Shown piece by piece: positions 1,184 to 30,823 of a DNA stretch of 32,000 nucleotides. How positions within the stretch are numbered: position 1 is the first letter of the stretch; each line of letters begins with the position of its first letter. The translations under genes and the position numbers were made by a program. A model generated the notes under the pieces. The model had not been told where the DNA came from, searched no databases, and saw nothing but the letters and a program-made list of their open reading frames with translations. Location of the stretch: positions 3,000,001-3,032,000 of the forward strand of contig NC_010296.1 in the NCBI RefSeq assembly GCF_000010625.1, given 5' to 3'. The stretch comes from Microcystis aeruginosa NIES-843. Lineage in GTDB: Bacteria; Cyanobacteriota; Cyanobacteriia; Cyanobacteriales; Microcystaceae.

Positions 1184-1351
1184 CTTTTTCTTTGCTCCAG
1201 AGATGCTACTAAGTCCATCGTGAATAAACTTTTCTGATTTCTTCCTCCGTGTAAAAATGATTAAAGTATTTAGAACTGCACATCTCCTCTACATAAGATA
1301 GTGGTAATTTGAGATTTTGCTTAAATTCTTTATACATATCTCGATAATTTT

Positions 1352-1538
1352 GGCTCTTCGGGACTTGGTATGGTTCGATAGGGGGGCATAAATCGACTCA
1401 ATCCTTATCTGGCAAGAGATTTAATTGATTAGTTCGCTCCAGATCGCCAACAATTGACAAAAATTGCGGCAATGTCTGTCTCTATAAAGGTTTCATTCCT
1501 TATAACCCCGTCCATTGCATAAGACAAACCGAAGAACC
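1352..1538. mobile_element. 187-bp MITE-like element, copy 1 (second copy at 27665-27851)
   Basis: Near-identical ~187-bp sequence occurs twice in the window. Terminal inverted repeats are GGCTCTTCG...CGAAGAACC here and GGTTCTTCG...CGAAGAGCC in copy 2. There is no coding capacity. Confidence 0.65.
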
Positions 1539-2246
1539 ATAATTTTTATCTTCTCCCACGTTCGTCCTTACTAACTTAAATTCTTTTAAACCCAGAAATT
1601 CGGCGATTGCTTTTTCCTTTACACTGTCAGAGGTTTCTAGTTTGAGGATCAATAAATCCACATTATCTTTGTTAATTCTTAAATATCCCTGCTCTTTCGG
1701 AAAAGGATATTCATAAACATCTATCCCTAAAAATGGCTTGAAGTAATTATCGAACCAGTCTAGGGGAGTTGAATGAGGGAAAAAATTGATAAATATATCC
1801 CTTAGCTCTTGGGGAGTAAAATTGGATTGTTCATACTTTTTCCCTGTTTCTCTTTCAAAGTTCTGAAAAAAAGCTGCAACATTTCTACCTATTGGTTCCC
1901 TAGTTAAAGAAATAATTTTTACTTGTTTTTTCGGGGCAATTATTTTGTTATATAAAAATTTACCCTGTCTGAGTAGCATTTCTCTCTCCAGTTTTACGCT
2001 CAAAATTTCGTAAACATTAGGATTGTAAAAGCTTCTATTATCAGCATTTTTGAGTAAAAAATGAACATGAAACAATGGCAAAATTGCTTTTTTTTTTAAG
2101 GATTTCATCACCGAGCTAGAACCAACTTTGCCCATTTGATAGATTATAATAGGTGTTTGATTCGTTGCATAAAGTCTGAATCGTAATTTTATGTCTTGCA
2201 GAACAATCTTCCGCAGATAAGTCAGGTTATCAAGCAATTTAGACAT
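1500..2246 (-). CDS. Sulfotransferase-family protein (putative polysaccharide modification)
   Basis: 248-aa ORF. YQMGKVGSSSV resembles the 5'-PSB PAPS-binding loop and SLTREPIGRNVAAF resembles the 3'-PB motif of sulfotransferases. It lies between the flippase and wzc-like genes. The last ~13 codons and the stop lie inside the MITE at 1352-1538. Confidence 0.45.
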   Translation of the reverse strand: MSKLLDNLTYLRKIVLQDIKLRFRLYATNQTPIIIYQMGKVGSSSVMKSLKKKAILPLFHVHFLLKNADNRSFYNPNVYEILSVKLEREMLLRQGKFLYNKIIAPKKQVKIISLTREPIGRNVAAFFQNFERETGKKYEQSNFTPQELRDIFINFFPHSTPLDWFDNYFKPFLGIDVYEYPFPKEQGYLRINKDNVDLLILKLETSDSVKEKAIAEFLGLKEFKLVRTNVGEDKNYGSSVCLMQWTGL

Positions 2247-7153: not shown

Positions 7154-7238
7154 GTAAACAGTAATCAGTGAAAAGACAGTAGGAAACTGGCATTTGATGA
7201 GGCTCACTTAATCCATACTGCACACTTAAAACTCAAAT

Positions 7239-7336
7239 CTGATAACTGATAACTGATAACTGATAACTGATAACTGATAACTGATTACTGATAACTGATT
7301 ACTGATTACTGATTACTGATTACTGATTACTGATTA
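7239..7336. repeat. Heptamer STR array (CTGATAA)6-CTGATTA-CTGATAA-(CTGATTA)6, 14 units
   Basis: Read directly from the sequence. The last unit contains the nadA stop codon (tta at 7334-7336 on the plus strand). Confidence 0.95.
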
Positions 7337-9342: not shown

Positions 9343-9666
9343 TTGAGTAACAAAGTGAAATATTTTTTCTTAACGGCAGGTTGGACAATAGGACGGGTGT
9401 GGGAATTTGGCGGTTTGTGGGATCACGCGAGTAGTTGGCGACGACCACCGCAGATAGAGCGATTAAATATCGGTATTTTAGAGGGAGAACAGGTTTTATG
9501 GCTTTATAAGGTGGAAGAAGCCGTGATTATGGTAGAAGTTGCCCCCAAGAGTGCCGAAATTGCCGATACTGTCCCCACCATCGGGCAAGTGGTGCTAAAA
9601 CGCTTGATTAGTGCCGAACAAGTCCTCGAAATCCTGCAAAATGCCGAAGAAGTGCTGAGGAAGTAA
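9343..9666 (+). CDS. Hypothetical protein (107 aa)
   Basis: ORF with a non-ATG (TTG) start in the track. Its codon usage resembles neighbouring genes. I recognise no family and the start is uncertain. Confidence 0.35.
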   Translation: MSNKVKYFFLTAGWTIGRVWEFGGLWDHASSWRRPPQIERLNIGILEGEQVLWLYKVEEAVIMVEVAPKSAEIADTVPTIGQVVLKRLISAEQVLEILQNAEEVLRK

Positions 9667-9832
9667 TCAGTTATCAGTTATCAGTTATCAGTTATCAGTC
9701 ATAATTCCCCATCTCCCCACAGCCCACAGCCCACAGCCCACACCCCACACCCCACACCCTACACCCCACACCCTACAGCCCACACCCCGCACCCCACACC
9801 CCACACCCTACACCCTACAGCCCACACCCCAC
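9664..9832. repeat. Composite STR: (TCAGTTA)4-5 followed by ~17 heptamers of CCCCACA/GCCCACA/CCCTACA
   Basis: Read directly. The first array begins at the stop codon of the 9343-9666 ORF and is the reverse complement of the CTGATAA family at 7239-7336. The C-rich array is the complement of the GGGGTGT arrays at 11.67 kb and 27.17 kb. Confidence 0.95.
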
Positions 9833-10051
9833 TCCCTGATCTGGAATATTCTGGCGGAAGACCGATCGCAAAGACTTGAAATCTGTTCTAACAATAGTTA
9901 CACTTCTTTAGAATAGATACACTTTTCAAGGGATAATGTAGGTCGGCTAACTCTTGCACTTAACAGTCGAGATTGTTGGGCTTATATTTTCACCCTGAAT
10001 ATAAAAAGCGTCTAAGTGGACACTAAATTGTCAATAGGAGGAGCGTAGTCA

Positions 10052-11633: not shown

Positions 11634-11662
11634 AATTAGGGTATGCTGAAAAAGTTTTTCGT

Positions 11663-11723
11663 GGGGGCAGGGTGTGGGGTGTGGGGTGTGGGGAGAAGGG
11701 AGCAGGGAGTGGGGAGCAGGGAG
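11663..11723. repeat. G-rich STR (GGGGTGT)3 plus GGGAGCA-type units
   Basis: Read directly: gggggcagggtgtggggtgtggggtgtggggagaagggagcagggagtggggagcagggag. Confidence 0.85.
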
Positions 11724-11885
11724 AAACAATTCATAACTTGAGAGTTAATCACACTATTAAAAACGGATTTATCCTAAATCCGGTTATTAAAAACTGATTA
11801 TTTATTCTCCCCTTTTTCTGTGCGTTACTCAAGGGATTTAGTATTAGTATAAAGTTCGATCGAGCTTTACTTTTCACCGAATACT

Positions 11886-17494: not shown

Positions 17495-19595
17495 GCTAAA
17501 GAGTACATAGCTAATCGAGAATTTGAAAATAAAGAAGAACTGGAAAAAGTAGTCAATCAGCTTTTAAATGAAGGGGGATTGATTATTAAATGGAGTAGAA
17601 AACTTAAAAATAAGGGTAATGCTGTCAATGTAACTTAAATGCGTAAAAGCTTACAATCTCTGAAGGTTACAGTTAAAACCCTAGGCTTAATTCCCCAGCA
17701 AGATTTGATCAATATTTTAAATTCCTTGCAAGTTAAAGTCGCAGATGAAGGGGATTTAACAATTATTTTAACCGATAATTATCTTCATCCTGATTTAGAG
17801 AGTATTAATCAACAAGCTTTAGCCTCGCACAAGCCTTGGTTATTAGTTAATCCCCTGGGAAACCTAGCATGGATTGGTCCCTTATTTGATCCCGATAAAA
17901 CTGGTTGTTGGCATTGTTTGGCTCAACGGTTACGAGATAATCGTCCCGTGGAGGAATTTATCATTAGACAGAGAGACAATAAGATTTCTTTAATTTCTCC
18001 TTTAGGGTTTTCTTCAGCGACAATACAGACGGTTTTAAATCTGACGGCTATGGAGGTTTTTAAGTGGATTATTCAAGGTAAAAATCAACGTTTAGAAGGA
18101 ATGCTAATGACTTATGATACTTTAAATTTACAATTTCAAGAGCATATTTTAGTTAAACGTCCGAACTGTCCTAGTTGTGGATATTCTCTAAATAAAACAC
18201 CTTTACCCGTGGTTTTGGGACATCGTAAAAAGGCTTTTACCAGTGATGGGGGACATCGTTTTTGTTCTCCTGAAGAAACCTTAAAAACCTATCAACATCA
18301 TATCGGTCCTGTTACGGGAATTGTGCGAGAATTAAATAAGATACAAGGGAATGCTTTAGTTCATACTTATGTAGCTAAACATCATTTTCGTAGTGTCTTT
18401 GATGATTTAGACAGTTTACGGCAAAATATTGGAGGTAGAAGTGCGGGAAAAGGCCGTACAGATAGTCAAGCAAAAGCAAGTAGATTTTGTGAAGCTATTG
18501 AGCGCTATTCGGGAGTTTTTCAAGGGAATGAAATCAAAGAAGAAGCGAGTTATCAAGAGTTAAAAGATAAAGCTATTCATCCTAACAAATGTATGAATTT
18601 TAGTGAAAAACAATACCAACATCGAGAAGAATGGAATGGGAAGAATCAAGGATGGTTTCAAAAAGTCCCTGAACCTTTTGATGAAACTAGAATCATTGAT
18701 TGGACTCCTGTATGGTCTTTAACTGCTCAAGATTTTAAGTATTTACCGACGGGATATTGTTATTATGGTTATTCTCAATCTGAACCCTTAGATTGTTGGG
18801 CTGATTCTAATGGCTGCGCCGCAGGAAATACGATAGAGGAAGCGATTTTACAAGGATTTATGGAGTTAGTGGAACGAGATTGTGTGGCTTTATGGTGGTA
18901 TAATCAATTAGTTAAACCTTCCGTTAATTTAGAGAGCTTTAATGAGCCATATTTTGAGCAATTAAAGCAATATTATGAGGGGTTAAATCGGGAGCTATGG
19001 GTGTTAGATATTACCAGTGATTTGAATATTCCCTGTTTTGCTGCTATTAGTCCGAGAAAGGAGCGGGAAGTGGAGGACATTTTGTTAGGGTATGGGGCGC
19101 ATTTTGACCCGAAAATTGCTATTAGTCGGGCGTTAACGGAGGTTAATCAAATCTTGCCGAATGTGTTATCTTTTAAGGAAGATGGGACAACGATTTATAA
19201 TTCTTCTGCTGATCCTTTGGCGGTTAAATGGTGGCAAACGGCAAGGTTAAGCAATCAATCTTATTTAGTTCCCGATAGTAAAATAATACCGAAAAAAAGT
19301 AATGATTATTTACAATTAGCCAGTGATGATTTATTAGCGGATGTTAAATTGTGTCAGCGAATTGTTGAGTCAAAGGGGATGGAAATGTTAGTATTAGATC
19401 AGACTCGTCCTGATATTGGTTTAAGGGTGGCTAAAGTCATTGTCCCCGGAATGCGTCATATGTGGAAGCGTTTAGGGGCAGGAAGATTATATGATGTTCC
19501 TGTTAGCATGGGATGGTTAAAAGAGACTTTGACGGAAGATGAATTAAATCCTTTTCCCATGTGGATGTAATGCTTTGGAATAGGGGAGCTTATCA

Positions 19596-19687
19596 CTGAT
19601 CAGTAAAAGGTGCATCACCGAAGTAACACACCTTAAATAGTGTTGGGTTCCGTACCTCAATCTAACCGATAAGAGAGGCGATCGCAC
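19596..19687 (-). repeat. Island repeat copy A (two-hairpin element ending in HIP1)
   Basis: Sequence ctgatcagtAAAAGGTGCATcaccgaagtaACACACCTTaaatagtGTTGGGTtccgtacctcaATCTAACcgataagagagGCGATCGCac. It abuts the mvl stop codon (19688-19690). Confidence 0.8.
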
Positions 19688-20032
19688 TTAGAAAGTGTAC
19701 TTGATTTGAATAACACTCATGACACCTTCAACAATGGTTCGCCACTGTCCAGTAAATTCTGCACCATAAGATGCTGCAATTTGCGGACCTAATTTTTGTG
19801 CTTCATCGTTGCTCCAGAGAGGTCCAGCTAAAACATCAGTTTTAAATTCATGAATTCCAGTATTTTCCACCTGTAGTTCTACTTCTACTACACTCATTGC
19901 ACTTTCAACTACGGTTGTCCACTGACCAGTAAAGTTTCCTTGATGAGCAGCTGCAATTTTCGGACCTACTTGTTGTGCTTCAGCGTTACTCCAGAGGGGG
20001 CCAGCAGGGATATTAACTTTGTAACTTGCCAT
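19688..20032 (-). CDS. mvl: Mannan/oligomannose-binding lectin MVL (two tandem 54-aa domains)
   Basis: Using the internal ATG at 20032 gives a 114-aa protein: MASYKVNIPAGPLWSNAEAQQVGPKIAAAHQGNFTGQWTTVVESAMSVVEVELQVENTGIHEFKTDVLAGPLWSNDEAQKLGPQIAASYGAEFTGQWRTIVEGVMSVIQIKYTF. From memory this matches the Microcystis viridis lectin MVL. The internal duplication GPLWSN-EAQ-GP-IAA...FTGQW is visible. The 34 extra upstream codons in the track ORF are unlikely to be real. Confidence 0.9.
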   Translation of the reverse strand: MASYKVNIPAGPLWSNAEAQQVGPKIAAAHQGNFTGQWTTVVESAMSVVEVELQVENTGIHEFKTDVLAGPLWSNDEAQKLGPQIAASYGAEFTGQWRTIVEGVMSVIQIKYTF

Positions 20033-20071
20033 AATAGATAATGTCCTTTGAGACTTTTGTTGATTTTGTAT

Positions 20072-20357
20072 CCTCAAGACGATATCAAAAATCCTTTTCT
20101 GAATTTTTTGAGTTAGCCATAATGCCTTAAGCAAAATGTCTTGTCTTTTGGGTTAAAAGTGATTGGTTCAATCACCTTTGATACCAGAATAAGTTTTATT
20201 TTTGGTAATGGCAATCTCTAAAATTAATACTTTTCTAATAGGTTTTTTCGAGCAGAATATTAACTTTTTATGAGATTTATATTAGATTTATATTAGATTC
20301 AAAGGGTCACTTTATGGTATAATTGCGTAATCTCTTAAGTAGAACAAATGAATTAAT
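20072..20357 (-). promoter_or_regulatory. Conserved upstream module (promoter plus long leader) of mvl; paralogous copy at 26831-27118
   Basis: About 290 bp are nearly identical between the two loci. The shared region includes 2.5-3 tandem copies of ATATTAGATTT(A) and the hairpin AAAAGTGATTggttcAATCACCTTT. Confidence 0.6.
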
Positions 20358-20374
20358 CAATCAAATTATAGAGA

Positions 20375-20580
20375 TTGAGTCAAAGGGGATGGAAATGTTA
20401 GTATTAGATCAGACTCGTCCTGATATTGGTTTAAGGGTGGCTAAAGTCATTGTCCCCGGAATGCGTCATATGTGGAAGCGTTTAGGGACAGGAAGATTGT
20501 ATGATGTTCCTGTTAGCATGGGATGGTTAAAAGAGACTTTGACGGAAGATGAATTAAATCCTTTTCCCATGTGGATGTAA
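20375..20580 (+). pseudogene. Detached duplicate of the last 206 bp of the heterocyclase gene
   Basis: Identical to 19365-19570 apart from 2 substitutions, and it ends at the same TAA. The 85-aa track ORF (20323-20580) is this fragment plus unrelated leader sequence. Confidence 0.85.
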
Positions 20581-20614
20581 CCCTTGTTCATGGTCAATTG
20601 TTGATGATTTTAAG

Positions 20615-21350: not shown

Positions 21351-21515
21351 GATCATTTTAGTTTAACTGAATCTAAGTAAAGTGTATCAGGGCAAATATC
21401 TCGTTCATGAGGCCATAAGCAAACTGATTCCTGATAGGTAAAAGGTATGTCAGCGAAGTAACACACCTTTATTAGTGTTGGTTTTCGTTGCTTCAATCTA
21501 ATCTAGAAGAGCGGC
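21351..21515 (-). repeat. Island repeat copy B (core 21431-21515, plus extension with the TTAACTGAATCT motif at 21363-21374)
   Basis: Sequence ctgataggtAAAAGGTATGTcagcgaagtaACACACCTTTattagtGTTGGTTttcgttgcttcaATCTAATctagaagagcggc. It lies 67 nt downstream of the vapC stop. Confidence 0.75.
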
Positions 21516-21582
21516 TGGATCATTGGGAGCTATTCCTTCATATTGATCTAAGATCAATAATATTTTCATTTGTTGAGTTACA

Positions 21583-22774: not shown

Positions 22775-23711
<937 letters not shown>

Positions 23712-23879: not shown

Positions 23880-24027
23880 GATCATTCCTCAATTCTAACT
23901 GATCTAAGCAGAAAATAAATAAGCTCTCCTGATGACTGATAGAGAAAAGGTATGTCACCGCAGTAACACACCTTTATTAGTGTTGGGTTTCGTTGCTTCA
24001 ACCCAACTACAAGAGCGGTGATCGCAC
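23880..24027 (-). repeat. Island repeat copy C (core 23936-24027, plus extension with TCTAACTGATCT motif)
   Basis: Sequence ctgatagagAAAAGGTATGTcaccgcagtaACACACCTTTattagtGTTGGGTttcgttgcttcaACCCAACtacaagagcggtGATCGCac. It ends 2 nt from the stop codon at 24030. Confidence 0.8.
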
Positions 24028-24029
24028 TA

Positions 24030-24302
24030 TTATTGAGGAATTAATTTAATTAAACTTCTTAAGGTAGCATTAACGGATTCCGAATTAGGAAAATACTTTT
24101 TAACATCAGGATCAAGAATAATTACATCATTTTGCGCTGGAAAATGTTCAACCGTTTTTGTTCCATCTTCATGATGAATAGTAACGCTATGACCTTCCCG
24201 ATACTGTTGGTAATATTTTCCGCAAACAGGATTTTTAAGTTGACTTAAATCATATTCTTCTCGCAAGTCATCTTCTAATTCATCTTGGATTTTCTCGTTC
24301 AT
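24030..24302 (-). CDS. Putative antitoxin partner of BrnT (BrnA-position gene)
   Basis: 90 aa with an acidic N-terminus. It overlaps the brnT 3' end by 23 nt in a toxin-first operon. Similarity to the canonical BrnA at 29146 is weak, so the family assignment is tentative. Confidence 0.5.
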   Translation of the reverse strand: MNEKIQDELEDDLREEYDLSQLKNPVCGKYYQQYREGHSVTIHHEDGTKTVEHFPAQNDVIILDPDVKKYFPNSESVNATLRSLIKLIPQ

Positions 24303-24567
24303 AATATCTCCTTTCTTTGGGTGTAACTAATCTTGCACTAATTAAACGAATTTTATGATCACGATCCGTATAAGAAACAAATAGAAATTTACTTTGATCT
24401 GATAAACCTATTATAAGATAGCGATTCTCTCCTGTAGAATGGTCAGGATCATCGAAATTTACAGCTAAGGGATCATCAAATACGGTGGATGCTTCTTCAA
24501 AAGAAATGTTATGTTTTCTTTGATTTATTTTTGCTTTCTGTTTATCCCATTCAAATGCTAGTTCCAA
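24280..24567 (-). CDS. brnT: BrnT-family (DUF497) ribonuclease toxin
   Basis: 95 aa: FEWDKQKAKINQRKHNISFEEASTVFDDPLAV...RYLIIGLS...VSYTDRDHKIRLISARLVTPKERRYYE. This is the typical BrnT signature. Confidence 0.8.
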   Translation of the reverse strand: MELAFEWDKQKAKINQRKHNISFEEASTVFDDPLAVNFDDPDHSTGENRYLIIGLSDQSKFLFVSYTDRDHKIRLISARLVTPKERRYYERENPR

Positions 24568-24695
24568 ATCATTGCCACTTTGCCAACTGAAATATCCCGC
24601 ATTGTAGCATATCCTGATGGCGGAATAACAATTTTTCCTGTGCGATCGCGTCTTCCCAAAGTTTGATTAATAGAGAGATATATAAGCGATCGCCG

Positions 24696-24788
24696 CTGAT
24701 AGTAAAAGGTATGTCACAGCAGTAACACACCTTTATTATTGTTGGGTTTCGTTGCCTCAACCCAATCGAGAAGAAGAAGCGATCGCAC
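24696..24788 (-). repeat. Island repeat copy D
   Basis: Sequence ctgatagtAAAAGGTATGTcacagcagtaACACACCTTTattattGTTGGGTttcgttgcctcaACCCAATcgagaagaagaaGCGATCGCac. It lies 37 nt downstream of the orf227 stop. Confidence 0.8.
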
Positions 24789-24825
24789 TGAATTAAGATA
24801 GCTGATGAGTTGATGAGATTGAGTT

Positions 24826-25509
24826 TTATTGCCTAGTTAAAACCCCATTTCCACGTGAATCAAATTTCAAAGTGTAAGTATATCCCATCAGCATAGCCCA
24901 ATTTCCAGTATCGAATACAACAGGATCTCCGATTTCCTCTTGTCCATTTGATCTAACAAGATCGTATGATCCTGCCTTTATGGATAGAGTCGTCTGCGGG
25001 GAACAAAGCACTGAATATCCCCAAGCAATCCATTTCACTCCCATACCAAACCCTACATTTACTGTATATTGTTCAGAATCATATTCGGGAATATGCCAAC
25101 CTTGTTCATCGTGCTGAAGCTCCATGTATTTGTTCAATGACAAGGAAAAATTATCGTTATCCCTTGAGTATGGATGATATGACTGGTTAGGGCTTATATC
25201 GCCTTTTTTGAAAACGGAAGCCATCCAATAAAGGGTTAAATCTTTATTGAAATTAATCATGACGTTTGTATCAACAGTTTGTTGTCCTGCGACTCTTCTG
25301 ACACCATTAGCAATAAACTCTGCTGGTGAAAAAGTCGCTACCAGTTCGATCCCTTGAACATAATCAGTTGTTATCTCTACGATAGTAACAGGTCCTCCCG
25401 TAGCTGGGGTTGCTAATATAGGCCGGAAAAACTCATCCGCATTTTCCAGTTGTGTTTTGGTAATCTCAAAAGGATGCTTTATTATTCCTATAGGTGGTCT
25501 CTTTTCCAT
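24826..25509 (-). CDS. Hypothetical protein orf227 (no recognisable family)
   Basis: 227-aa ORF with a GGAG SD-like sequence upstream. No signal peptide or TM segment is seen. The composition is rich in beta-strand-like alternating patterns (e.g. VNVGFGMGVKWIAWGYSV, YTYTLKFDSRGNG). Confidence 0.65.
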   Translation of the reverse strand: MEKRPPIGIIKHPFEITKTQLENADEFFRPILATPATGGPVTIVEITTDYVQGIELVATFSPAEFIANGVRRVAGQQTVDTNVMINFNKDLTLYWMASVFKKGDISPNQSYHPYSRDNDNFSLSLNKYMELQHDEQGWHIPEYDSEQYTVNVGFGMGVKWIAWGYSVLCSPQTTLSIKAGSYDLVRSNGQEEIGDPVVFDTGNWAMLMGYTYTLKFDSRGNGVLTRQ

Positions 25510-25547
25510 GGAAACAACTCCAATTATAATTTTGATTTTGACAGTAA

Positions 25548-25638
25548 GGGTCTATTAAGGTGTGTCACCGCAGTAACACACCTTAAATAGTGTCGGTTTT
25601 CGTTGCTTTAACCTAGCCTGAAATATTGGCGATCTCAC
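25548..25638 (-). repeat. Island repeat copy E (most diverged)
   Basis: Sequence tctaTTAAGGTGTGTcaccgcagtaACACACCTTAAatagtgtcGGTTttcgttgctttAACCtagcctgaaatattgGCGATCTCac. It lies 17 nt downstream of the orf365 stop. Confidence 0.7.
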
Positions 25639-25655
25639 CGCCCCAATAGAGATTG

Positions 25656-26753
25656 CTAGGAGTTTTTAAATAGAAGCTTTGCTCCAGCTACTAAAAGTTG
25701 TTTGATCTTATCTGCACTTTGAGATCCCGAATATGTGAAGTTAACTGTTTTTCCACCCCCAGTCTGGCTAGTAATCTTAAACTCAACTCCAGTTAATACA
25801 AAGATTCCAAAAGCGGCTGTTAGTGCTGTTTTTACGGTAAGCGTCCCTGCCAAAAACGTATTAGCTTCATCCTCAAACGTACTTGTCCATGTAACGCTAA
25901 TTACTTGATCGTCTTGCGTTTCTCCGAGAGAGCTAAAACCGCTTGATAGGAGATTTGCCTGTTCTTGGTTTTTGGCTGAATGCCATAGATCTGTCAGTGA
26001 CGCTAACAATAATTTATGACTATCAATTAAATTGTCAACGAAATTTAAAGGTGCAGTTAGAAGTTCTTGACTAGGTTTCCCCGGCGAAACCTGAAACTCT
26101 CCTGATGAGGTTAAGATGACAGTGGCCTCACGCCCTTTAAAATCTTTGAGTTCAATAACGGCAGCATCATTAGCAACCTCAGTCCAACTCGCTAGTTCAT
26201 TTTCGCCATAATCCCCCGTTGTTACATAGAATGCCAATTTTGGACTTAAAGTTCTTCTGTCATTAGGACTAGGAGACCAACTCATACCGATGAAACCATT
26301 ATCAGTTTGGATTCCAAAGGACATACTACTATACCATTTACAGTCTTCATTTGCGCTTTGGTCAAAAGCATTAGACTTCAGGGCAATCATATTTTCAGGA
26401 GCAGGTGATTTAATTTGGCTCATGGTAGGAGCTTTTTTTCCTCGGCAGTCCTCCGTCACCGTTACGTAGTCTATCTCCCAAGTCTCTTGTAGTTCTATAT
26501 TGTTACTGACGAAGGCATCAATTTTAATACCTAATCCAACAGCTTTATTGCTTGATCCTCCACCTGCAATATACTGCACTGGGATAGTAAACGTATTCGT
26601 CGCTGGCGAGTTAGGATCAACATCCAAATTAATTTTGGAGTTGGCGAAAACATTAGGATTTCCTTTAAGCTCGTCTGGAGGTTGCAAGAAAGCCCAAAAA
26701 GTTTTTGTTTGTTTGCTCTGATTGACTAAATAGATCGTGTACTCAGCAGCCAT
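25656..26753 (-). CDS. Hypothetical protein orf365 (no recognisable family)
   Basis: 365-aa ORF with a strong SD (AAGGAG) 6 nt upstream. The N-terminus reads MAAEYTIYLVNQSKQTKTFWAFLQPP... No signal peptide is seen. One moderately hydrophobic C-terminal stretch is present (TALTAAFGIFVLTGV). It shares its upstream module with mvl. Confidence 0.7.
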   Translation of the reverse strand: MAAEYTIYLVNQSKQTKTFWAFLQPPDELKGNPNVFANSKINLDVDPNSPATNTFTIPVQYIAGGGSSNKAVGLGIKIDAFVSNNIELQETWEIDYVTVTEDCRGKKAPTMSQIKSPAPENMIALKSNAFDQSANEDCKWYSSMSFGIQTDNGFIGMSWSPSPNDRRTLSPKLAFYVTTGDYGENELASWTEVANDAAVIELKDFKGREATVILTSSGEFQVSPGKPSQELLTAPLNFVDNLIDSHKLLLASLTDLWHSAKNQEQANLLSSGFSSLGETQDDQVISVTWTSTFEDEANTFLAGTLTVKTALTAAFGIFVLTGVEFKITSQTGGGKTVNFTYSGSQSADKIKQLLVAGAKLLFKNS

Positions 26754-26830
26754 GATTGATCTCCTTATTTATTGAGTAAATACCGAATTCGATTTTGAAC
26801 AAACAATAAGTTTGTCTTCCATACGTACAC

Positions 26831-27118
26831 CCTCAAGACATTCTCAAAAATCTATTCGTGAAATTTTCGAGTTAGCCATAGTGCCTTAAGCAAAATGCCT
26901 TGTCTTTGGGGTTAAAAGTGATTTGTTTAATCACCTTTGATACCAGAATAAGTTTTATTTTGAGTAATGGCAATCTCTAAAGTTAATACTTTTCTAATAG
27001 GTTTTTTTGAGTAGAATATTAACTTTTATATTAGATTTATATTAGATTTATATTAGATTCAAAGGGTCACTTTATGGTATGACTACCTCATCCCTGAAAG
27101 TAGAACTAATGAATTAAT
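26831..27118 (-). promoter_or_regulatory. Conserved upstream module of orf365 (paralogue of the mvl upstream module)
   Basis: Near-identical to 20072-20357, with 3 copies of the ATATTAGATTTA unit and the same AAAAGTGATT...AATCACCTTT hairpin. Confidence 0.6.
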
Positions 27119-27165
27119 TGGGCATCTGAAATCCTCAAAACCCTTTTACTCTCTGATTTGAAAGA

Positions 27166-27204
27166 GGGTGTGGGGTGTGGGGTGTGGGGTGTGGGGTGTG
27201 GGGA
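27166..27204. repeat. (GGGGTGT)5-6 tandem repeat
   Basis: Read directly: gggtgtggggtgtggggtgtggggtgtggggtgtgggga. Confidence 0.95.
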
Positions 27205-27424
27205 AGGAAACCTCTTTCATCTGTGGGGGTGAAAATTTTTTCATCGGGACTGATTTGTAGAGTGTCAGGAGATGAAAAGAAGGCAGCAAAAAAGCGATCG
27301 CTTATCCCTCAAGGAAAACACCTGCCCTAAGTAAGGAGATGCTACCACCGGATGATGAGTATAACCTTTCAATTAGTTCTGGCTTTACTTTCCCGTGGGC
27401 AAGTGATTTTACAAGGAGAAAACC

Positions 27425-27640
27425 ATGACAAAAAAGCCTCACATTAAACTTATCCACATTGGAGAGTACATGGCTGAAGTGGAAGTCGAACTGATTGAGA
27501 CTCCCGAAGGATGGTCGCCCTATTTATCATTAGAAGACGCTCAAAAATTAGATGGTGTCCGGGAAGCCCTTCGTCAAGGTGATCTGCAAAAAGCTTCCAA
27601 TTTAGCACATCTTTACAAAATTACCCCTCTTACCGTTTAA
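27425..27640 (+). CDS. Small hypothetical protein (71 aa)
   Basis: ATG ORF with an AAGGAG SD 7 nt upstream. I recognise no family. Confidence 0.45.
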   Translation: MTKKPHIKLIHIGEYMAEVEVELIETPEGWSPYLSLEDAQKLDGVREALRQGDLQKASNLAHLYKITPLTV

Positions 27641-27664
27641 CTAAACTTTGACAAGAAAAAATTA

Positions 27665-27851
27665 GGTTCTTCGTTACTTGGTATGATTCGATATGGGGGC
27701 ATAAATCGACTAAATCCTTATCTGGTAAGAGATTTAATTGATTAGTTCGCTCTAGATCAAAAACAATTGACAAAAATCGCCAAATGCTTTTCTACATAAG
27801 GGTTACATCCCTTATATCCCCCGTCCATTGCATAACACAAACCGAAGAGCC
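27665..27851. mobile_element. 187-bp MITE-like element, copy 2
   Basis: See copy 1 at 1352-1538. TIRs are GGTTCTTCG...CGAAGAGCC. Confidence 0.65.
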
Positions 27852-27925
27852 AAAAATTAAAAAGCGATCGCTATTCCTCAGAACAACACAGCGATCGCCT
27901 AACTTTTAACTATCACAAGCAACAT

Positions 27926-29652: not shown

Positions 29653-30823
29653 ATTAGGGGTCGAGAAGGTCGTCACCGACCTCCCCTCCCATTCAGAACC
29701 GTGCGTGATACTTTCGCATCACACGGCTCCTAGTTTGACTGTTCCCTTGTTAAGGATACAGCTTGACTTCTTTTGGTTGTCATTGTATTATCTATACTAA
29801 CTTCTAATGGTGTTAGCGTAGATGATTTTGGGCTTCCATCAGATGCCGATTTATCATCGTGACAGTGGCGGTGTAGTAATTGAAGGTTCTTGTATTCATC
29901 CTTTCCGCCTAAGCTTAGAGGGTGAATGTGGTCAACTTCAATTAAATCCGATGGGGTGAAATACTGCCCACATCGGCTACACTTGCCTTGTTGCTTTTTG
30001 AGTAGTTTGGCTACTCTTGTCGGTGTGTCGATTGCTTGTCCTCGTCTGGTCGCCCAGTAAGTCCAATTTCCGTCATAAGGTGAGGCGTCGGCGCGTACTA
30101 GGGTATGTCTGACAATTGGTGTCCAATTATGGAAACATAATTGATGACCGTCTTTGGTCTTAAATAACCAAGATTCGTGTCTTTCTTTCCCATTGCTGAG
30201 TTTAACTGTATCCGGTCTAAAATAATTTCTCAGCTTTTCGTAGTTCGCTTTACCGCATCTTGATACTGTCCATGCCCTTAACATTAACCAGGTTGTATTG
30301 TCTAGTTTATTGAAGGTATCCATAGATACTACTCCTGAGTAGTAGTTAGCCCAACCTCTAATGATTGGGTTTAGTCGACTAATCAGGGCTGATTGAGGTG
30401 CTGTTTTGTGTTTTTTGATTACACCTTTAATCGCTTCTGTGTGGGTTTTAACTGCTTTTTGGCTGGGTTTGATGTGGGTTTTGTGACCAATTAATCGTTT
30501 TGCCCCATCTTTCCCAGATTTGTATTTTCCTACTGGATATTGCCTGATATTGAATCCTAGAAAGTCAAAACCGGGTTCTTCCATTTTCCCATTGTATTCA
30601 ATAGGTTTGAGTGTGTGACACACTCTGGTTTTTTCTGGTTTAAGTTCTAATCCTATCGGTTTTAACCATTCGGAAATGGCAGTTTTGCACTGTTCAATGA
30701 TTTCGAGTGATGGGGAAATCACTACAAAGTCATCGGCGTATCTTATGAGAACAGCTTGATTAGTATCTTTCTTTTTGGGAAATAACGTTTCAATTAGTCT
30801 CGCCATTCCATCCAGTGCGATGT

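Follow-up and report, generated by a model that had tools for sequence, protein, structure and literature searches.

In a 32,000-nucleotide stretch of the Microcystis aeruginosa NIES-843 genome (contig NC_010296.1, positions 3,000,001 to 3,032,000; as a whole called the window, with coordinates counted from its first letter), the lectin gene mvl and the unrelated gene orf365 are preceded by the same block of about 290 nucleotides (nt), here called the module. We consider it probable that this block is a conserved 'expression head' placed before strain-specific cargo genes that are exchanged by recombination. Such a head would supply a sigma-70-type promoter, an AT-rich tract upstream of it and a variable number of 11-bp phased repeats, and would continue into the first part of a 5' untranslated region (UTR) that begins with a stem-loop of 10-11 bp. 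It would sit before strain-specific cargo at several chromosomal slots in Microcystis, and the cargo would be exchanged between strains and between slots through one crossover inside the head and another in or beyond D2, a repeat of ~95 nt that closes each cassette. As a result, genes as unrelated as mvl and orf365 would share a transcription start and the start of a leader.

The module and its cargo

Copy A of the module lies upstream of mvl at 20070-20359 and copy B upstream of orf365 at 26826-27119, both on the minus strand. Each was recovered by the repeat finder, by alignment and by a profile search (nhmmer, E=1.4e-88 and E=1.5e-95, respectively). The repeat finder resolved their homology into family D5 (20072-20268 versus 26831-27027; 197 nt, 90%) and family D9 (20265-20338 versus 27025-27098; 74 nt, 88%). 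Global alignment gives 90.2% identity over 286 aligned nt with 4 gap columns, and just beyond either end identity is ~46%, the chance level. All three approaches bear out the homologous block upstream of two unrelated minus-strand genes that an initial annotation of the sequence had proposed; its wording 'almost identical' corresponds to 90% identity. Two sub-patterns of 37-45 nt have exactly two matches each in the window, against zero expected in shuffled sequence, and a search with a profile built from many copies found no third module there. The shared block stops 39 nt before the ATG of mvl and 77 nt before that of orf365 (26753), close to the ~40 and ~80 nt first estimated; the mvl start codon lies at 20032 and not at 20033. 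On its far side, copy A is homologous with some other copies as far as ~20374, where it abuts a YcaO fragment.

To collect further copies, we scanned one genome per species (185,579 species) with a 22-mer from the module core, and metagenome contigs with the hairpin pattern described below. Both scans need an exact core match of 20-22 nt, so that diverged copies are missed. The genome scan returned 11 loci, at one or two per assembly, nine of them in named Microcystis. The other two are in a metagenome-assembled genome labelled Flavobacteriaceae (L013; L numbers denote the collected loci, which are genome or metagenome contigs), probably mis-binned, and in a low-coverage contig labelled Nostoc (L019). 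The latter is assigned to Nostoc sp. UCD121, has a coverage of 4.5 and carries a YcaO gene with ~81% DNA identity to that of the window, so it would represent a different lineage or a contaminant from one. Metagenome contigs added 42 further loci, including one chance match. A phage origin was considered and rejected: both viral-contig matches to the hairpin pattern lacked the module (41 nt, 76%, at the palindrome only), and the D2 pattern had zero matches in viral contigs.

In total, 61 module copies were found across genomes and metagenome contigs. A same-strand open reading frame (ORF) starts 58-274 nt after the hairpin in 59 of them, and the other two run into a contig end. The first genes belong to 25 unrelated families. 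Together with the single orientation and a universal core containing the promoter site and hairpin, this diversity strongly supports the portable promoter proposed in the initial annotation; comparison of the copies shows both the portability and the fixed orientation. Most of the cargo has no Pfam family. The exceptions are MVL, an OAA-family lectin, three HBL-type pore-forming toxin components, a PatG-type subtilase with small peptide genes nearby, an extracytoplasmic function (ECF) sigma factor, a tail-collar protein and, as a weak match, cytolysin domain 4.

In the window, copy A precedes mvl (19688-20032, minus strand; 114 codons plus stop, Pfam MVL) and copy B precedes orf365 (25656-26753, minus strand), which encodes a member of a conserved hypothetical protein family. 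The latter gene had been called an orphan. It has 87 homologues in several phyla, at 38-55% identity apart from one near-identical sequence (93%), distributed among cyanobacteria, proteobacteria and myxobacteria and including Sphingomonas, Massilia and Bradyrhizobium. Some members of the family are tagged PF27136. The gene is also encoded, with neighbours as in the window, on AP019314.1 (GCA_003945305.1), which we take to be Microcystis viridis NIES-102. Its fold gave no clue to function, as the confident all-beta model (pLDDT 86.7) had no PDB match at E <= 0.001, with TM-scores of ~0.13.

Each window copy is 100% identical to its counterpart in another sample (L053 and L004), and the two are 90% identical to each other. 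On this comparison they are old paralogues and not a recent duplication. Co-regulation of mvl and orf365 is a reasonable prediction from the shared module. The initial annotation had extended it, as a possibility, to orf227 (24826-25509, minus strand), which forms a separate cassette after orf365. Co-transcription or co-regulation of this gene with the other two is doubtful, because a terminator-like D2 precedes it and because it is absent after orf365 in L008. The microvirin gene mvn, the second lectin gene known from Microcystis, was tested as a further user of the module and lacks it; a string shared with the module leader, TTAAGGCACTATG, occurs upstream of mvn (L066 ~590-610, L067 ~2020-2040) and may be there by chance.

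A minimal core and a largely dispensable leader

Signed positions take as their origin the T of TCAAAGG (window position 20181 for mvl, 26940 for orf365). How far homology reaches on the distal side varies with genomic context (-59, -194, -290 or -444), and one copy retains only -59 onward. On the proximal side homology stops at +28-31, +35-38, +50, +81 or, most often, ~+114. Therefore only the part from about -59 to +28 is common to all copies, and comparison shows this to be the minimal core. It consists of an AT-rich tract, the hexamer pair TTGCCA-17-TATTCT and a 25-nt hairpin.

The sigma-70-like site occupies 20186-20214 in copy A (TTGCCA at 20214-20209, a 17-nt spacer and TATTCT at 20191-20186) and 26945-26973 in copy B, with the same hexamers and spacing, both on the minus strand. 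Both window copies thus have sigma-70-type hexamers, at a spacing within the expected 16-18 nt, that are conserved among homologues. Across the collection the -10 hexamer is invariant, the -35 hexamer is kept in 32 of 34 distinct sequences and a 4-nt patch of the spacer is variable. Cargo preceded only by -59..+28 or by -178..+38 still needs a promoter, and on this comparative argument the promoter must lie in the core. We infer that TTGCCA-17-TATTCT is the active promoter and that transcription starts ~7 nt after the -10 site, near 20179 in copy A and near 26938 in copy B. The transcript would therefore open with the stem-loop at its very 5' end.

Copies with neither context nor cargo in common show identities of 90.6% in the core, 84.5% in the distal part and 84.3% in the leader. 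Comparison of the most divergent locus (L019) with a Microcystis copy gives 92.7% identity for the core, 80-86% for the cargo coding DNA next to it and 80.7% for the neighbouring YcaO gene. By this measure the core is more conserved than neighbouring coding DNA.

The hairpin, an imperfect palindrome, is present in both window copies, as first reported: AAAGGTGATTG-AAC-CAATCACTTTT at 20155-20179 in copy A, and at 26914-26938 with the loop AAACA in copy B (both minus strand). The 11 genome copies, which were collected with a pattern lacking the arms, all have the same arm sequences, and the loop varies. It may act at the 5' end of the RNA, for example on stability, or as an operator. In Escherichia coli, the ompA 5' UTR has a 5'-terminal stem-loop that stabilises the mRNA. 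The stem-loop of the module is similar in lying 0-2 nt from the predicted 5' end and in being kept when the rest of the leader is lost. Unlike that of ompA, it could equally be a DNA operator.

Upstream of the core lies a tandem repeat of the unit ATATTAGATTT (plus strand), at 20257-20299 in copy A (3.9 copies, 81%) and at 27025-27059 in copy B (3.2 copies, 100%). In copy A this is about -78 to -120 from the predicted transcription start. Tandem Repeats Finder thus gives a period of 11 nt, where a 12-nt unit in 2.5 and 3 copies had been read initially. The number of units varies from ~2 to 4 between strains. The tract is also a recurrent site of insertions and of deletions between tandem modules. 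In AP019314.1, an ISAzo13-type insertion sequence (IS) of 1.3 kb (L001 4393-5703, corresponding to ~27050 in the window, which lacks it) interrupts the array of the orf365 module; elsewhere the tract contains an insert of ~90 nt (L020, L033) or, in other loci, a partial module duplication of ~420 nt. An 11-bp period, with units on one helix face, would fit intrinsic bending or tandem binding of a response regulator.

Some smaller features of this region were noted. The array of copy B contains, on the plus strand (27025-27054), a promoter-like TTTATA-18-TATATT that faces a divergent 71-amino-acid gene (27425-27640), away from orf365. Intergenic tandem arrays of the heptanucleotides GGGGTGT / CCCCACA and CTGATAA occur at 27166-27203, directly upstream of module B, and at 9694-9840, 11655-11736, 7203-7335 and 9662-9702. 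A 10-bp inverted repeat upstream of the -35 hexamer, AAAGTTAATA / TATTAACTTT, was seen by eye in copy B and is not kept in other copies. Contig ends (L007, L008 and L010 begin at -18 and +17 to +19) were discarded as a proxy for the start site, since junctions of repeat and cargo are expected to break assemblies.

Beyond the hairpin, the rest of the mvl leader (20033-20154, minus strand) divides into a part in common with copy B (20072-20154) and a cargo-specific part (20033-20071). The ribosome-binding region of the latter, together with the first three codons, is shared with the unrelated cargo in L013. The leader is truncated to +28..+81 in 14 copies, which represent nine of the 25 cargo types. 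We conclude that the promoter and first hairpin would form the functional core, and that the remaining leader is at best accessory.

A block of ~50 nt from the 3' part of the leader (+62..+118; GCTAACTC.AAAAATTCA...GTCTTAAGGGTGTA) also recurs inside cargo operons, where, by eye, its hairpin is apparently not preserved. It stands alone upstream of internal cargo genes, in L012/L051 between the first and second cargo genes and in L024/L050 at two places. This suggests that new genes were inserted into the leader and that older cargo was pushed downstream.

Just past the shared block (window 26790-26830; also L014, L016, L017, L021, L034, L035 and L054), many cargo types have a two-tier hairpin made of GGAC or AGAC, a type-specific stem, GTCC or GTCT and then AAAGTCSAAT; the stem sequences differ and the pairing is apparently kept. 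The leader also contains an 11-codon frame with a weak ribosome-binding site, at 20085-20120 (minus strand; MANSKNSEKDF in the mvl copy) and 26844-26879. Its ATG is invariant, its peptide is not conserved, and 5 of 28 leaders lack the stop or have it displaced. The thought that this frame (ATGGCTAAC...TGA, 20120-20085) is a relic of an earlier cargo gene arose from L045 and L060, where the ORF caller starts an orf365-family protein at the leader frame. It was rejected because the frame in these loci merely lacks a stop and runs into a gene that has a ribosome-binding site and ATG of its own 36 nt further on.

Cassette arrays and probable exchange between slots

Cargo and the cassettes behind it are closed by D2. 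Five copies occur in the window, all on the minus strand: after the mvl stop codon (19589-19687; terminator-like, repeat-finder families D2 and D8), after orf365 (25539-25640; folding z = -4.1), after orf227 (24688-24790; z = -5.8) and after a BrnT/BrnA-like cassette (23929-24025) and a PhdYeFM/PIN cassette (21424-21520). The repeat contains a HIP1 site, a short hairpin and a terminator-like hairpin of 12-13 bp with a U-run. All five window copies have the 12-13-bp stem with a 4-nt loop and UUUU(A/C), and folding is much stronger than in shuffles for three of the five flanking segments. On the other hand, the GC content of the stem is only moderate, the U-run lies partly inside it, and a simple terminator scan raised no flag.

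Among the collected loci we counted 66 D2 hits in 60 loci, all co-oriented with the module. Of these, 64 are downstream of it and two upstream, in roughly equal amounts of sequence, and comparison thereby shows the link between D2 and the arrays. In most loci the repeat starts 0-50 nt after the last cargo stop codon. It resembles repetitive extragenic palindromic (REP) sequences, bacterial interspersed mosaic elements (BIMEs) and intrinsic terminators in being a structured repeat after a stop codon, with a stable hairpin and U-run. It differs from REP/BIME palindromes in that, within the 445 kb examined, it occurs almost only in arrays downstream of the module and always co-oriented.

The cassettes behind the cargo include many toxin-antitoxin pairs, and the genes of the arrays are all co-oriented except for the transposases of inserted ISs. 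One such transposase lies in opposite orientation inside the window array, split into two overlapping ORFs (22775-23711, plus strand), and looks like a member of the IS110 family. Relative to L006, locus L004 lacks one toxin-antitoxin cassette, with the join inside a D2. Ungapped mapping of crossovers in 53 distinct D2 copies mostly returned the left edge of the repeat itself, and did not separate site-specific from homologous exchange. Family F20 was compared between L026 and L043 as a cargo found both behind the module and deeper in an array, and its copies are too diverged to place a junction.

The module occurs in at least five upstream contexts, each with a different distal end of homology: amidohydrolase / BrnTA, phosphoketolase, DnaA / deformylase, glgC and the YcaO-fragment site that holds mvl in the window. 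This last site is occupied by mvl in the window and L053, by orf365 plus orf227 in L009 and by another small protein in L022. Therefore both cargo and slot vary. The slot is bracketed by a direct duplication of the YcaO 3' end, in which a 211-bp copy at 20375-20585 (plus strand; repeat-finder family D4) is 98% identical to 19365-19575, with module A, mvl and its D2 in between. In L009 and L022 the same bracketed position is occupied by other cargo; the duplication is therefore old, and the slot that it marks is stable.

Copies with the same cargo in different contexts are 98.9% identical in the leader versus 89.1% in the distal part. Copies in the same context with different cargo show the reverse, with 93.7% in the distal part versus 86.9% in the leader. 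Locus L009 is a chimera: the proximal part of its module is identical to the orf365 copy, and the flank upstream and the distal edge match the mvl slot. In these comparisons the leader goes where the cargo goes, the distal part remains at the site, and crossovers fall inside the module, which would make the module the 5' homology arm in cargo exchange.

This resembles streptococcal capsule and bacteriocin loci, where variable loci are replaced between conserved flanks by homologous recombination. Here too each slot holds unrelated gene sets, the flanks act as homology arms and mosaic breakpoints lie in the flanks. Unlike in those loci, the 5' arm is itself a promoter and leader and is present at several slots, so that cargo may move between slots, as L009 and the mvl slot of the window suggest.

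Some neighbouring features complete the picture. The commonest upstream context (L023, L030, L031 and L055) has, 2.9-4.7 kb upstream, a radical SAM/SPASM gene and small proteins ending in PYIPVTTT or PYIPLSCL, which together look like a peptide-modification cluster. Two further direct repeats (122 nt, 89%; 40 nt, 90%) connect the beginning of the window (1346-1545) with sequence upstream of module B (27659-27858). At 29653-29731 the catalytic domain of a group II intron (Rfam RF00029, 59 bits) adjoins an ORF at 29730-30806 with maturase, reverse transcriptase and HNH domains.

Alternative explanations and wider reading

Several points weigh against the module as an expression head. The promoter hexamers match at only 9 of 12 positions, and such matches are equally common in shuffled sequence. 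Invariant hairpin arms provide no covariation evidence, and constant arms around a variable centre fit a protein-binding DNA palindrome equally well. The exact-match requirement of the scans inflates the apparent invariance of the core positions it covers, and many metagenome contigs are short, with copies that are not independent strains. Lastly, homologous and site-specific recombination both fit the exchange of cargo.

One alternative concerns what conserves the block. The palindrome after the -10 hexamer may be a DNA operator for a dimeric factor, such as a repressor on the start site, with the 11-bp repeats as sites of a second regulator; it would then be protein binding, and not RNA structure, that keeps the block conserved. 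The promoter reading allows for this, and we regard it as possible but rather doubtful. It would account for invariant arms around a centre of 5-7 nt that varies in every copy, for the position of that centre ~13 nt after the predicted start and for a period that sets the repeats on one helix face. The half-sites GTGAT/ATCAC, although more widely spaced, may also resemble those of the CRP family. However, the palindrome is imperfect at one position, which gives a G-U pair on the sense RNA only, no regulator gene is linked to the module across contexts, and the repeats vary from 2 to 4 in a tract that tolerates large insertions.

RNA structure is the concern of a further alternative, in which a long structured leader acts as a cis-regulatory RNA, as the initial annotation suggested; in the form of a riboswitch, attenuator or thermometer it would respond to a signal and control all cargo. 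In its favour, the sense strand of the leader is more stably folded than its shuffles (z = -2.9 and -4.4), the antisense strand is not (-0.14), and a predicted multi-branch fold common to the copies pairs 92% of cells. One-sided C-to-U changes keep G-U pairs, and the two-tier hairpins of some cargo types occupy the same place with different stems. Yet none of the 32 pairs predicted by RNAalifold is compensatory, and for a 42-pair model the covariation measures requested in the initial annotation equal the shuffle means (e.g. 2 pairs observed versus 2.0 expected), in a test of low power, the aligned sequences being 88% identical. There was no Rfam match at the gathering score across the window, and no credible match at E<=10 upstream of mvl or at E<=1 in 23880-27250. 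With nine cargo types lacking everything after +28..+81, the 3' block found elsewhere without its hairpin, and cargo that has no common metabolic theme for a ligand sensor, we consider a controlling RNA of this kind distinctly improbable.

Other alternatives concern how the block came to lie before unrelated genes. A recent local duplication or gene conversion in this genome, without functional meaning, would suit two copies 6.8 kb apart in one array. It is refuted by the identity of each to its outside counterpart and by 23 further cargo families that the block heads in other strains, and we give it next to no weight. It is also very unlikely that the block is a mobile-element end (a miniature transposable element with inverted repeats, MITE, or an IS terminus) that lies upstream of both genes by chance. 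Microcystis genomes are rich in repeats and ISs, the block occurs in several contexts, and partial tandem copies of its distal 80-125 nt exist. Against this, every copy has the same orientation to the downstream gene, with one or two copies per assembly in the exact-match genome scan. The distal end depends on context, no transposase is linked, no terminal inverted repeats or target duplications appear in the alignments, and deletions between tandem modules account for the partial copies. The generic mobile-element end at many sites and in either orientation, which the initial annotation had named among its refuting outcomes, is thus largely refuted by these comparisons. The module is akin to the Correia elements of Neisseria in being a short non-coding unit that supplies promoter elements to unrelated genes at several loci. 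Correia elements differ in being MITEs of high copy number that have terminal inverted repeats and target duplications and insert either way round, unlike the module, which is low-copy, in one orientation and without fixed ends.

More serious is a site-specific cassette system, with the module as promoter and insertion site, D2 as the travelling recombination site and the recombinase encoded elsewhere. Such a system would explain a promoter head followed by co-oriented cassettes, many of them toxin-antitoxin, each closed by a ~95-nt repeat. It would also explain the loss of a whole cassette between L006 and L004, the divergence of many cargo types near the same leader position (~+114) and a 3' leader block duplicated on both sides of an inserted gene. 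However, homologous recombination between repeats of 85-95% identity gives the same patterns, and the leader junctions fall into at least five classes and are 'soft', with weak similarity past +114. No integrase or recombinase was found by Pfam in the larger ORFs that the window has outside the array (1.5-19.6 kb) or in eight upstream ORF families, which comprise the two ORFs at 29.7-32.0 kb and several from other loci; the genes within ~10 kb upstream of modules include IS transposases, a group II intron reverse transcriptase, radical SAM, RPE65 and Uma2. In size, position and orientation D2 agrees with attC sites (57-141 bp), but by eye it has two short hairpins, the second terminator-like, instead of a long imperfect palindrome ending in RYYYAAC/GTTRRRY, with heptamers of this kind only in reverse order. 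On balance we think a site-specific system unlikely, though it merits consideration.

The comparison with integrons (the Pc + attI platform, sedentary chromosomal integrons, the Vibrio superintegron) is instructive all the same. As in integrons, a fixed head, here with a promoter-like site, precedes an array of co-oriented cassettes that end in one family of ~100-nt repeats, with many toxin-antitoxin pairs and strain-specific cargo that includes lectin- and toxin-type genes. Unlike in integrons, no integrase was found by the head, the repeat forms two short hairpins and a U-run by eye, the head is present at several sites and more than once per array, part of the leader travels, and crossovers look dispersed. 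The whole looks like a cassette array with a promoter head. We do not file it as an integron because no integrase or recombinase was found in the regions examined and because D2 is unlike attC by eye.

In full-text searches of the literature, the module, the D2 repeat and the arrays were nowhere described, and the matches listed included no primary transcriptome for Microcystis. The gene-swapping slot marked by the module is apparently undescribed so far. As a speculation that we put forward with considerable doubt, module and D2 might constitute a new cyanobacterial gene-cassette system, a functional analogue of integrons that works through an unidentified recombinase or a dedicated repeat-guided mechanism. 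In that event, and with no greater confidence, cassettes for biotic interaction (lectins, pore-forming toxins and peptide natural products) and toxin-antitoxin pairs might be taken up, lined up after one regulated promoter that serves them all, and passed between strains and between slots.

Microcystis is the main bloom-former of fresh water, and its strains differ greatly in accessory genes. The layout of the arrays raises the question of whether an integron-like organisation can exist without an integron integrase. If the module is an expression head, it would be a cheap sequence marker for strain-specific genes in genomes and bloom metagenomes, and, for experiments in Microcystis, where manipulation is difficult, a portable element for expression that nature already provides. 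It would also provide a concrete route by which mvl and similar genes pass between strains and slots. Finally, a single regulatory input would control varied strain-specific surface and defence proteins, from lectins and toxins to the products of peptide genes.

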